Of a stretch of DNA of 64,000 nt, positions 6,083 to 41,826 are shown piece after piece. The stretch's first letter is position 1. Each line of letters begins with the position of its first letter. This DNA is from Candidatus Levyibacteriota bacterium. Its GTDB lineage: Bacteria; Patescibacteriota; Microgenomatia; Levybacterales; UBA12049. The notes beneath the pieces were generated by a model, which searched no databases, had not been told where the DNA came from, and saw only the letters and a program-made list of their open reading frames with translations. Where the stretch lies: the NCBI GenBank assembly GCA_003173895.1, contig PJMG01000002.1, positions 26,974-90,973 of the forward strand, written 5' to 3'. The position numbers were made by a program, and so were the translations under genes.

Positions 6083-6086
6083 AAAT

Positions 6087-6563
6087 TTATCGCATTTTTA
6101 TTTTCTTAGCAGGAATTCCACCAACTATGCACATTGAAGGAACATCTTTAGTAACTACTGCTCCTGCAGCTATTATGGCCCCTTTACCAATGTGTACCCC
6201 TGGAAGTATAAGCACATTTGCCCCAATCCAAACATTATCTTCAATTACTATCCTATTAAATGGGCCAAAACCTTGATCTATAATAGCCTTTTTTTTGTCG
6301 GAAAAATTATGATTGGCCGTAGTGATAAGCGTATTCTGACCAATTAAAACATTATTTCCAATCTTAATTAGACCGTTATATGAGTCTAATTCTACATCGT
6401 GGTTAATGTATAAATTTGATCCTAAATCAATATTTTCACCTCTTTTGAATCTAAAATTACCTAAAATAACCACATCTTTACCCACTGATTTTAGGAAAAA
6501 AGAATTAATAAAAACTCTTATTTTTACAATAGAGTAAAATAGTTTAATACGAAAAAAATACAT
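6087..6563 (-). CDS. Hexapeptide-repeat (left-handed beta-helix) acetyltransferase
   Basis: Tandem [LIV]G hexapeptide repeats are present, for example [41 protein letters not shown]. Confidence 0.7.
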
Positions 6564-36733: not shown

Positions 36734-37492
36734 TTAATTATTAAATAAAATTACAAACTCTCCTTTTGGTTTTTTATTTTTATAAGCAATTAACAACTCA
36801 GATATTTTTTCTTTCTTTACTTCTTCATAAACTTTAGTTAATTCACGAGCTATAACAATCTCAATATCTCCAAATATTTCCAGTAATGCTTCCAGGTTAC
36901 CAATAATTTTATAAGGCGAGGCAAAAAATATATTTGTAGTTTTTATTAATTTTTCAGATTCTTTTATATTTTCTAGCAGTTTTAATGCATGCGATTTTTT
37001 CTCTGGTAAAAATCCATAAAAAGAAAATTTATCAGTTGGCAATCCAGACACTGAGAGTGCTGAGATTACAGAAGATGGACCTGGAACGCTAACTACTTTT
37101 ATATTATTTATTAAACATTCTCGAACTAATTTAAATCCGGGATCAGAAATAAGAGGAGTACCTGCATCGGAAACTAAAGCCACATTTTTATCATTTAAAA
37201 GTAAATTTAACATCTCTGGAATTTTTCGCATTTCTACTTCATCATAAAAAGAAATCAAAGTAGGATTACTATCTGAAACGTTTTCGTCATTGCGAGCTTC
37301 GCCAGAGGCGGGCGTGGCAATCTTTTTTTTCAAATCAAACAACCAATTTTTTCTGATGTAATCTAATAGTAATCCTGTTTTTCTAGTATCTTCACAAGCA
37401 ATAACATTCACTGAAAATAAAGTTTGGACTGCTCTTAAAGTTAAATCACCCATATTGCCGATAGGAGTTGAAACAATATATAATATTCCCAT
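36734..37492 (-). CDS. rsmI: 16S rRNA (cytidine1402-2'-O)-methyltransferase RsmI
   Basis: GILYIVSTPIGNMGDLTLRAVQTL...CEDTRKTGLLL. A low-complexity insertion of about 25 aa (KKKIATPASGEARNDENVSDSNPT) is present. Confidence 0.75.
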   Translation of the reverse strand: MGILYIVSTPIGNMGDLTLRAVQTLFSVNVIACEDTRKTGLLLDYIRKNWLFDLKKKIATPASGEARNDENVSDSNPTLISFYDEVEMRKIPEMLNLLLNDKNVALVSDAGTPLISDPGFKLVRECLINNIKVVSVPGPSSVISALSVSGLPTDKFSFYGFLPEKKSHALKLLENIKESEKLIKTTNIFFASPYKIIGNLEALLEIFGDIEIVIARELTKVYEEVKKEKISELLIAYKNKKPKGEFVILFNN

Positions 37493-39135: not shown

Positions 39136-39765
39136 TTAAGTAAATTTCCTTATTACCGCCACGCATTTACCTTGAATAGTCAGTTGGGTTGGATAAATGG
39201 GGCGCATTTCAGAATTAGCAGGACGAAGCACTACTCGATCATTTTCTTTATAATATTTTTTAAGAGTAGCGAGATTATCATCTACTATCGCTACTATTAT
39301 ATCTCCCATTTTAATCTCACGTTCTTTCTCAATAACCACATAATCGCCATCTAAAATTCCATCCTCTATCAATGAATCACCTTTTACCTGTAAAACATAT
39401 GCTGCATATTTACTAGAGAGCAGAGACGCTGAAACTGAAAAAGTCGCATAAGGATCACTATGAGGCTCTAATGGTTTTCCTGCTGCTATAAAACCCATTA
39501 GTGGCAGTTCCACAGAGGGACCTACACGGCTCATTTTATATGAAACAGTAGGATCGATAATTTTAAGAACACGACTGTTCCCTTCTACTTTTTGAACATA
39601 ACCTTTATCTACTAGTGTTTTTATAATTTGATGGATAGTAGAAACTGCTCTATGACCTGTTGCATTCGCAATCTCAGTTAAGGTAGGTGAATAACCATAT
39701 CTATTTTGATATTGGATTAAAAATTCGAGTACTTCTCTTTCTCGTCTATATAGAACTCCAGCCAT
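39136..39765 (-). CDS. lexA: LexA repressor (S24 peptidase). The start is taken at MAGVLYRRE, and the 40-aa upstream extension of the track ORF is rejected.
   Basis: wHTH segment SPTLTEIANATGHRAVSTIHQIIKTLVDKGYV. Ala-Gly cleavage site in GFIAAGKPLE. Catalytic segment VKGDSLIEDG with Ser, and a downstream Lys. Confidence 0.85.
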   Translation of the reverse strand: MAGVLYRREREVLEFLIQYQNRYGYSPTLTEIANATGHRAVSTIHQIIKTLVDKGYVQKVEGNSRVLKIIDPTVSYKMSRVGPSVELPLMGFIAAGKPLEPHSDPYATFSVSASLLSSKYAAYVLQVKGDSLIEDGILDGDYVVIEKEREIKMGDIIVAIVDDNLATLKKYYKENDRVVLRPANSEMRPIYPTQLTIQGKCVAVIRKFT

Positions 39766-39774
39766 ACTAAATTT

Positions 39775-39791
39775 TATACGAAATTCGTATA
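39775..39791. promoter_or_regulatory. Candidate LexA operator. This is a 17-bp perfect palindrome, TATACGAA-A-TTCGTATA, in the lexA-uvrB divergent intergenic region.
   Basis: Read directly from the sequence. It lies between a minus-strand -35 (TTGACA, reverse complement of 39796-39801) and a -10 (TATAAA, reverse complement of 39772-39777). It is 20 bp upstream of the uvrB extended -10, TGGTACAAT, at 39812-39820. Confidence 0.4.
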
Positions 39792-39834
39792 TTTTTGTCA
39801 ATAGGACAATGTGGTACAATCTAATATATAATCT

Positions 39835-41826
39835 ATGAAATTTAAAGTTGTTTCTAATTTTAACCCTAGTGGTGATCAACCTCAAGCCATAAAACAGTTA
39901 AGCACCAACATTAAAAATAATGCTAAACATCAAGTGCTTTTAGGTGTTACAGGCAGTGGGAAAACCTTTACCATGTCTAAAATTATAGAAGAAGTTCAAA
40001 AACCAACTTTAGTAATAGCACATAATAAAACTTTGGCTGGACAACTTTATCAAGAATTTCGCGAGTTTTTTCCTCATAACGCAGTATCATATTTTGTTTC
40101 TTATTATGACTATTATCAACCGGAAGCTTATGTTCCCCAATCAGATACTTATATCGAAAAAGAATCTGAAATTAATGAAGAGATCGATAAACTTAGACTG
40201 GCTGCCACTGCGAATTTACTAACTAGGAAAGACGTTATCGTAGTAGCTTCTGTCTCCTGTATTTATTCTCTGGGCTCACCAGTTGAATATGGAAAGTTTG
40301 TTTTGGAAATAAAAGCTGGCATGAAAATAAATCAAAAAGATATTTTAATCCGACTCACTGATCTTCAATATGACAGAAATGATTTTGGTTTTCATAGAGG
40401 TTCATTTAGAGTCAGAGGAGAAGATATAGAACTGCTTCCAGCATATATGGATACAGGTCTTAGAATAATTATTAAAGAAAATTTTTTAAGGAAAATAGAA
40501 GAATTTGATCCTTTGACTGGAGATACTATTTCAAATATTGATGCAACAATAGTCTACCCCGCTAAACATTATATGACTGATCCGAAAACTTATGAAAATG
40601 TTTTTAAAGAAATTAGAACAGATTTAGGTAAACAAATCGAAATATTTAAAAAACAAAATAAATTACTTGAAGCTCAGAGAATCCAGCAAAGAACTAATTT
40701 TGATTTACAAATGATTCAGGAAGTAGGCTACGTAAATGGAATTGAAAATTATTCCAGATATTTTGAAGGTAGAAATCCTGGAAGTGCTCCTTATACACTC
40801 CTGGATTATATGAAAGCTTGCTCTGAAGATTGGCTTTTATTCGTGGATGAATCTCACATGAGTTTACCTCAGGTCCGTGGAATGTATAATGGCGATCGAG
40901 CGCGAAAAGAAGTCTTAATAGACTATGGATTTAGACTACCTAGCGCTTTAGATAATAGACCGCTTAAGTTTGAAGAATTTATGTCTCGAGTTAATCAAGC
41001 TGTGTATGTAAGCGCTACTCCATCAGATTTTGAAATGTCACTAGCTACTGAAACACCTAATGGGGTGGCAGAACAATTAATAAGACCTACTGGCATAGTC
41101 GATCCTATAGTCGAAGTTAGACCAACTAAAGGCCAAATTCCAGATTTAATGCAGGAGATTTTAAAACGAATTGAGAAACATGAGCGCGTTCTAGTTACTA
41201 CTTTAACCAAAAGAATGTCGGAGGAATTAACTTTTTACCTTCAAGAACGAAATATTAAAGTTCTTTATCTTCATTCAGATATAGAGACTTTAGAACGCCA
41301 GGAAATATTAGACAAACTTCGCCGCGGAGATGTAGATGTAGTTGTAGGAATTAATTTACTTCGAGAGGGTTTAGACTTACCAGAAGTTACTTTAGTGGCA
41401 ATTTTAGACGCGGATAAAGAGGGCTTTTTAAGAAGTAAAACCTCGCTGATTCAAACTATGGGCCGCGCTGCTCGAAATATAAACTCCAGAGTTATTCTTT
41501 ATGCAGATAAACAAACAGACTCTATGAAATTTGCTATTTCTGAGGTAGAAAGACGACGAAAAATCCAATTAGAATATAATAAAAAACATCACATTACTCC
41601 TAAAAATATCCAGAAATCTATAAGAGAAAGATTAGTGGAATATGAAGAAGACATTCCTGCTGAAGATGTAGTTTTTAAAGATTTAGAGAATAAAGAAATT
41701 TTACTTCCTGATGATAAAAAGAAAATGAAAAAGCTTCTTAAAGAACGAATGACTCAAGCAGCGAAAAATCTCGACTTCGAATCCGCAGCAATGTTAAGGG
41801 ATAAGATAAAAAGTTTAGATAAATAA
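39835..41826 (+). CDS. uvrB: Excinuclease ABC subunit B (UvrB)
   Basis: Walker A is GVTGSGKTFT. There are helicase motifs, a beta-hairpin region and a C-terminal UVR domain. Similarity is full length. Confidence 0.95.
   Translation: MKFKVVSNFNPSGDQPQAIKQLSTNIKNNAKHQVLLGVTGSGKTFTMSKIIEEVQKPTLVIAHNKTLAGQLYQEFREFFPHNAVSYFVSYYDYYQPEAYVPQSDTYIEKESEINEEIDKLRLAATANLLTRKDVIVVASVSCIYSLGSPVEYGKFVLEIKAGMKINQKDILIRLTDLQYDRNDFGFHRGSFRVRGEDIELLPAYMDTGLRIIIKENFLRKIEEFDPLTGDTISNIDATIVYPAKHYMTDPKTYENVFKEIRTDLGKQIEIFKKQNKLLEAQRIQQRTNFDLQMIQEVGYVNGIENYSRYFEGRNPGSAPYTLLDYMKACSEDWLLFVDESHMSLPQVRGMYNGDRARKEVLIDYGFRLPSALDNRPLKFEEFMSRVNQAVYVSATPSDFEMSLATETPNGVAEQLIRPTGIVDPIVEVRPTKGQIPDLMQEILKRIEKHERVLVTTLTKRMSEELTFYLQERNIKVLYLHSDIETLERQEILDKLRRGDVDVVVGINLLREGLDLPEVTLVAILDADKEGFLRSKTSLIQTMGRAARNINSRVILYADKQTDSMKFAISEVERRRKIQLEYNKKHHITPKNIQKSIRERLVEYEEDIPAEDVVFKDLENKEILLPDDKKKMKKLLKERMTQAAKNLDFESAAMLRDKIKSLDK

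Follow-up and report, generated by a model that had tools for sequence, protein, structure and literature searches.

In E. coli, the LexA box has the sequence CTGT-N8-ACAG, and in Firmicutes and Actinobacteria the Cheo/DinR box of Gram-positive bacteria has the sequence CGAAC-N4-GTTCG. The recognition helix of LexA from B. subtilis presumably carries the same S-T-(V/I)-H signature as the LexA proteins of the Levybacteria. The SOS network of the Patescibacteria was reportedly analysed by Sanchez-Osuna, Barbe and Erill in 2017 (Environ Microbiol, PMID 28618189). According to Table S2 of PMC8565304, the LexA proteins of a Collierbacterium (Microgenomates) and of a Parcubacterium were validated experimentally in this patescibacterial study, and in PMC7739468 the same study is cited among the cases in which LexA evolved the recognition of direct repeats. 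It may already cover the lexA motif of the Levybacteria. For the Alphaproteobacteria, the direct repeat GTTC-N7-GTTC is cited as LexA box in PMC8565304 and PMC7739468. Autoregulation of LexA via a site that overlaps its own promoter is described as close to universal in the introduction of PMC8565304.

The DNA analysed here, referred to as the window, is a stretch of 64 kb with a GC content of 29% (25–33% within the window) and originates from an uncultured Levybacterium, a member of the Candidate Phyla Radiation. It contains a palindrome in front of lexA, which most probably (probability roughly 0.78, as judged from sequence comparison) represents the autoregulatory LexA operator of this gene; its sequence would be specific for the lineage, and as a control element it would be of an ordinary kind. 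No new kind of regulation is revealed by this palindrome. If confirmed, it would provide a LexA-binding motif for the Levybacteria, by which the SOS regulon of uncultured bacteria with reduced genomes would become predictable from sequence alone.

The divergent genes lexA and uvrB and the palindrome between them

The start codons of lexA (minus strand) and uvrB (plus strand) face away from each other and are separated by 69 bp (39765 versus 39835). According to Pfam, the lexA product consists of a LexA_DNA_bind domain at the N-terminus (PF01726, E = 1.1e-10, residues 5–65) and a Peptidase_S24 domain at the C-terminus (PF00717, E = 3.2e-26), and the uvrB product possesses UvrB_inter, UvrB, UVR and helicase domains. 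The closest homologues of the window LexA are named LexA proteins of Candidatus Levybacteria or Patescibacteria (65–75% identity). The protein could be aligned over its full length with the solved LexA structures 3K2Z, 1JHH and 3JSO. In the alignment, A95-G96, S131 and K169 correspond to A84-G85, S119 and K156 of LexA from E. coli; Ala95-Gly96 is the predicted scissile bond and Ser131/Lys169 the predicted catalytic dyad. The features of the locus are as follows.

39136 to 39765, minus strand: coding sequence of lexA, 209 amino acids, with winged-helix DNA-binding and self-cleaving S24 domains (Pfam)
39765 to 39763, minus strand: ATG of lexA (sequence reading)
39773 to 39778, minus strand: -10 of lexA, TATAAA, 7 nt before the ATG
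39775 to 39791, no strand: proposed LexA operator, palindrome TATACGAA-A-TTCGTATA, inverted form with N3 between CGA and TCG (sequence and relatives)
39775 to 39782, minus strand: promoter-proximal half-site TTCGTATA, its TATA forming bases 1–4 of the -10; the near-invariant half
39784 to 39791, minus strand: promoter-distal half-site TATACGAA (as read on the lexA strand), inside the -35/-10 spacer; the variable half
39796 to 39801, minus strand: -35 of lexA, TTGACA, 17-nt spacer to the -10
39795 to 39809, no strand: second inverted repeat, TTGTC-AATAG-GACAA, overlapping the lexA -35 (sequence reading)
39812 to 39820, plus strand: extended -10 of uvrB, TGGTACAAT, predicted transcription start near 39827 (sequence and relatives)
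39835 to 41826, plus strand: coding sequence of uvrB, 663 amino acids, divergent from lexA (Pfam)

The perfect inverted repeat of 17 bp, TATACGAAATTCGTATA, which the earlier note had placed between both genes, is present exactly at 39775–39791 with the structure 8+1+8, and when the sequence was read, all other sequence features named in that note were likewise found in place. Within the lexA promoter, the palindrome takes up most of the -35/-10 spacer and extends four bases into the -10. This promoter, TTGACA-17-TATAAA, is near-consensus and abuts the start codon of lexA, and transcription is predicted to begin with the A of this codon or one base earlier. The lexA mRNA would therefore be leaderless or possess a leader of 1 nt. 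The suggestion that lexA is near-leaderless is supported by the relatives, since the -10 is located 6–8 nt from the ATG in 14 of the 53 related promoters, that of the window being among them. Some related lexA promoters with long leaders carry a ribosome-binding site of the GGAG type. A consensus promoter scan passed over the lexA promoter of the window because TATAAA lacks the final T which the scan requires; at the equivalent position in the relatives, the -10 is TATATT or TATAAA. Two half-sites overlapping core promoter elements of lexA, i.e. the layout of an SOS box, are present in the window as well as in the relatives.

The second inverted repeat is kept as TTTGTC-N4/5-TTGACAA at the same place, the lexA -35, in many relatives. 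It might bind another protein or consist of -35-like elements arranged back to back.

The number of perfect inverted repeats in the window was compared with first-order Markov simulations. In this DNA of 29% GC, 23 repeats had arms of 8 nt or more and loops of 0–5 nt, and a mean of 24.6 was obtained in the simulations. Near-matches to the palindrome or to its core elsewhere in the 64 kb occurred at chance level. The palindrome by itself is thus no commoner than chance in the AT-rich window, and the case therefore rests on the comparison between relatives. Two features go beyond chance, namely the position of the palindrome and its conservation at orthologous lexA promoters.

In the neighbourhood of lexA, a gene for RsmI (TP_methylase according to Pfam, MGTLYIV..PIGN) follows directly downstream on the same strand in many relatives (L021–L039, L048 and L052). 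In the window, two genes on the plus strand separate lexA from rsmI (36734–37492). Many of the metagenome-assembled genome records with a lexA-uvrB arrangement of the Levybacteria type (L003–L053) carry the titles 'uncultured Gammaproteobacteria', Eisenbacteria, Lysobacterales or Limnocylindrales, which seem to reflect a mislabelling of the taxonomy.

Conservation, geometry and specificity of the half-sites

A set of 57 lexA loci of Levybacteria with their flanks, obtained by a scan of one genome per species, was used for comparison. In an alignment of the upstream regions, TCG(T/C)(A/G)TA was fused to the -10 in 51 of 54 lexA promoters. This proximal half-site is TCGTATA in most cases, and TCGCATA or TCGTGTA is rare. 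Likewise, TTGACA, TTGAAA or TTGATA is kept 17–18 nt upstream of the -10 in the related promoters. The right arm of the palindrome overlaps the -10, and part of its conservation is therefore owed to the promoter itself. The proposal of a LexA operator of non-canonical sequence gained support, as an element conserved in the lineage is embedded in the lexA promoter.

The second half-site occurs in two forms. About 26–28 of the 54 promoters contain an inverted repeat of the type TAYRCGA-N4-TCGTATA (class A); the spacing is N4 in 21 loci, N3 in four (the window, L003, L027 and L031) and N5 in one or two, and two further sites are degenerate. In about 25 loci (class B) the mirrored arm is missing, and a second TTC(G) of the same orientation precedes the first by exactly 11 bp (TTCG-N7-TTCG). 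Clear examples of the latter are L052, in which TTCGTATATTT occurs twice, and L050, L049 and L053 with TTCG-N7-TTCG; L182 (TTTCGACTTAT-TTTCGTGTAAA) is a further locus of this class. Offset profiles agree with this division. In class A, an inverted copy fits best at the N4 offset, with a mean of 6.3 of 8 identities, and in class B a direct copy fits best at an offset of 11 (4.7 of 8 identities), all other offsets reaching 3.5 at most. A protein search with the divergent LexA of L050, which was aimed at other Microgenomates, returned only more Levybacteria.

The core CGAA-N-TTCG, which the earlier note had emphasized, is indeed present in the window, but in the relatives only CGA...TCG and the TA/TATA flanks are kept, and the central bases between CGA and TCG vary. 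Judging from this comparison, the core is an accident of the spacer in the window genome. Its interpretation as a shortened form of CGAAC-N4-GTTCG had to be abandoned as well, because CGA and TCG are 3–5 nt apart in the lineage and 8 nt apart in the Cheo box.

The predicted recognition helix of the window LexA comprises residues 40–46 (A40-V-S42-T43-I44-H45-Q46), and its S-T-I/V-H is nearly constant across the LexA proteins of both the inverted-repeat and the direct-repeat class. When the LexA proteins were placed in a neighbour-joining tree, three groups were distinguished: the basal clade has direct repeats, a large one has N4 inverted repeats, and the third, to which the window belongs, is mixed. 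This grouping suggests that the operator switched its orientation at least twice, with no obvious change of the recognition helix. The variation of the spacing (N3, N4 or N5) and the flipped orientation among the relatives would be unusual for a rigid dimeric operator and count against its interpretation as a LexA operator. As a tentative explanation, which we regard as possible but not as the probable one, one half-site could be fused permanently to the -10, and its partner could have flipped several times between the inverted form (N3–N5) and the direct form (11 bp) under the same helix; such an operator may control little beyond lexA in these reduced genomes. If this is true, the loci form a natural series in which a single LexA dimer accommodates inverted as well as direct geometries of its half-sites. 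The occurrence of inverted and direct operators among LexA proteins which are about 60–75% identical and share one helix bears on the evolution of LexA motifs, and the variants are a compact natural set for binding assays. This polymorphism is a moderately interesting side result.

The specificity of the element for lexA was examined in 940 kb, comprising the window and the lexA loci of Levybacteria. All 27 intergenic sites that matched the palindrome with a score of 17 of 20 or higher were located at lexA promoters. With a matrix of the half-site that permitted either orientation, 33 strong paired sites were detected in the 940 kb, all of them at lexA promoters except for one, which lies inside a gene. 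The heptamer TCGTATA occurred in 72 intergenic and 67 coding copies, although intergenic DNA makes up only 11.5% of the sequence. This intergenic excess is due to the lexA promoters, as only about eight intergenic copies lie away from lexA. Among intergenic matches, the longer TCGTATAWWWT is nearly confined to lexA promoters. Weaker paired sites were not enriched in the remaining 476 intergenic regions (12 versus about 20 in shuffled sequences). Since the element is rare away from lexA, it does not belong to the promoters of these genomes in general.

The proteins encoded beside the stray copies of TCGTATA bear by eye no resemblance to repair proteins. In L017, a lone TTCGTATA (1996–2002) is located 131 bp upstream of a gene for a protein of 99 amino acids, which resembles a GIY-YIG nuclease domain. 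In L047, GGTACGAAATTCGTACT (6084–6100) shares the core TACGAA-A-TTCGTA with the window and lies in an unrelated intergenic region, flanked by two small open reading frames. The lexA promoter of this genome has the direct-repeat form, and its TACGAA-A-TTCGTA site may have arisen by chance.

Proposed control of lexA, alternative explanations and other SOS genes

In the proposed mechanism, a LexA dimer would bind two half-sites of the TTCGTATA type, one of which is fused to the -10 hexamer of lexA while its partner is located in the -35/-10 spacer. Since the half-sites occupy these parts of the promoter, bound LexA would keep RNA polymerase off the strong leaderless lexA promoter. Upon DNA damage, RecA would stimulate the self-cleavage of LexA at Ala95-Gly96 by Ser131/Lys169, and the lexA promoter would be released. 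We infer from the position and conservation of the palindrome that LexA is its binder; repression upon binding and the triggering of cleavage by RecA are inferred, too.

It is also conceivable that the conserved TTCGTATA is an element of promoter recognition, for example an odd -10 or -15 region or a -10 used by an alternative sigma factor, and that the palindrome is incidental. Sigma-W promoters of B. subtilis have CGTATA as -10, the invariant half coincides with the -10 of lexA, perfect palindromes are common in the AT-rich DNA of the window, and about half of the relatives lack the palindrome. Nevertheless, this explanation is very improbable. TTGACA-17/18-TATAWW is already a near-consensus housekeeping promoter, its -35 is devoid of the AAC signature of ECF-type promoters, and the distance from a TGAAA-like -35 to CGTATA, as worked out from the sequences, is about 14 nt and not 16–17 nt. 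Moreover, the mirrored TAYRCGA in 26–28 spacers and the TTCG located 11 bp upstream in the other promoters would be left unexplained, and in the direct-repeat class the promoters function although their spacer has another sequence. Of the 476 other intergenic regions, nearly all are without the element, the roughly eight single TCGTATA copies aside, and the uvrB promoters of the same genomes use TGnTAnAAT without TTCG. Another DNA-binding protein that controls lexA could also be the one which uses the palindrome as its operator, given that LexA is named as the binder by sequence comparison, and that the TTGTC-N5-GACAA repeat and the upstream TTGAC-like repeats show that the region may carry other sites. 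This is very improbable, too, as the site is essentially confined to lexA, in very small genomes with few regulators, and as the DNA-binding helix of LexA shows the same degree of conservation as the half-site; furthermore, the autoregulation of LexA at its own promoter is the near-universal case according to the introduction of PMC8565304. An operator used by LexA itself is thus the preferred reading of the palindrome.

The earlier note had treated the operator as shared with uvrB. The promoter of uvrB in the relatives is of the extended -10 type; TGnTAnAAT was found at a distance of at most 32 nt from the ATG of uvrB in 40 of 43 loci, nearly all at about 6–10 nt. TGGTACAAT was taken as the uvrB promoter of the window because it matches this conserved promoter. 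A plus-strand AGGACA-18-TATAAT, which the consensus promoter scan had listed, was rejected as uvrB promoter, as transcription would start downstream of the uvrB ATG. With TGnTAnAAT 6–10 nt before the ATG, uvrB is generally arranged as a leaderless gene (e.g. in L037, L013 and L030), and the window is an exception, with 14 nt from the extended -10 to the ATG and without a ribosome-binding site (39812–39834).

A single LexA operator might repress both promoters and thereby make lexA and uvrB a minimal SOS unit under joint control. In favour of this, uvrB belongs to the classical SOS genes of E. coli and B. subtilis, and not only the window but also 41 of 53 related loci examined have lexA and uvrB in divergent arrangement. 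In the window, the operator extends from -52 to -36 relative to the predicted start of uvrB, and LexA bound there could clash with RNA polymerase at the -35 region. In every relative, however, the operator is located at -65 to -1167, too far for steric repression; the region between both genes is shortest in the window (69 bp) and exceeds 1 kb at the other extreme. Moreover, the uvrB promoter lacks a recognizable -35, and promoters of the extended -10 type need few upstream contacts; no separate site of the TTCGTA type was found near any uvrB promoter of the loci examined, and in one clade, uvrA, which directly follows uvrB, is preceded by a promoter of its own that lacks the motif. A joint control of both genes is therefore doubtful. 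An operator shared with uvrB is not a trait of the lineage, since uvrB has its own extended -10 and the operator is at least 65 nt away in all relatives, and because of this distance, co-repression is not what maintains the synteny of lexA and uvrB. Control of uvrB by the operator is not established. In the window genome only, LexA might hinder the polymerase at the upstream edge of the extended -10 promoter of uvrB, which we consider rather unlikely; owing to the unusually short intergenic region of 69 bp, any such effect would be secondary and specific for this genome.

On the uvrB side, a block with the sequence GGGGTCAAAAT (ATTTTGACCCC on the lexA strand) is conserved about 45–50 bp from the operator (L029, L030, L034, L037, L039, L054 and others). 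It is preceded by TTTG(A/T)C-like repeats at intervals of roughly 10 bp. In compact loci such as the window, the extended -10 of uvrB lies at the position equivalent to this block.

Other genes of the SOS response were sought as further targets of the operator. A tblastn search with a RecA query yielded no recA in the window or in the 57 loci. With a UvrA query, uvrA was found by tblastn in nine loci, and the motif was absent upstream of the gene in all nine. The basal clade has uvrA behind uvrB. Among the promoters of further DNA-damage genes, the nine of uvrA and those of uvrB in the loci examined were without an operator of their own. A metagenome scan for the operator followed 66–96 nt downstream by the RecA motif FGKGxxM yielded no recA of Levybacteria; the three loci obtained were two recA genes of Coriobacteriia and one chance match inside a gene. 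A scan of the collection for TATACGA-N3-5-TCGTATA gave at least 120 matches, and those listed were chance matches in viral contigs.

The two Coriobacteriia metagenome contigs carry TACGAATGTTCGTA just after the -10 of recA. In both L178 (2752–2882) and L179 (6115–6239), TTGAC(T/A)-17-TAGTAT/TAGGAT and then ATACGAATGTTCGTAAG are located upstream of recA, and the palindrome TACGA-N4-TCGTA is kept in both. In an actinobacterial lineage, TCGAAC-N4-GTTCGA is the expected box.

Comparison with known LexA boxes

The direct-repeat form in about 25 lexA promoters of the Levybacteria, TTCG-N7-TTCG with a period of 11 bp, resembles the alphaproteobacterial box. The repeated tetranucleotide, however, is TTCG and not GTTC, and the LexA proteins of the Levybacteria are placed outside the alphaproteobacterial clade. 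The form in the window differs further, as it is inverted and therefore has no head-to-tail arrangement with an 11-bp period.

With the Cheo box, the half-site of the window has CGA/TCG (TTCG) in common. In contrast to this box, GAAC...GTTC is absent both in the window (CGAA-A-TTCG) and in the relatives, and TA/TATA flanks are conserved instead. The shared TTCG and the S-T-(I/V)-H helix are compatible with descent from the Cheo type.

From the box of E. coli, the site in the window differs in sequence and in the spacing of its half-sites; in addition, one half-site is fused to the -10, and the mRNA is predicted to be leaderless. Unlike in the E. coli system, no other member of a regulon was seen for the motif of the window in the regions examined. 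The protein itself corresponds to LexA from E. coli in its winged-helix and S24 domains, its Ala-Gly bond and its Ser/Lys dyad. Following the general model of LexA function as given in PMC8565304, steric exclusion of RNA polymerase would be expected at lexA in the window. As in an autoregulatory SOS box of the E. coli type, the dyad site of the window is located inside the promoter of the repressor's own gene.
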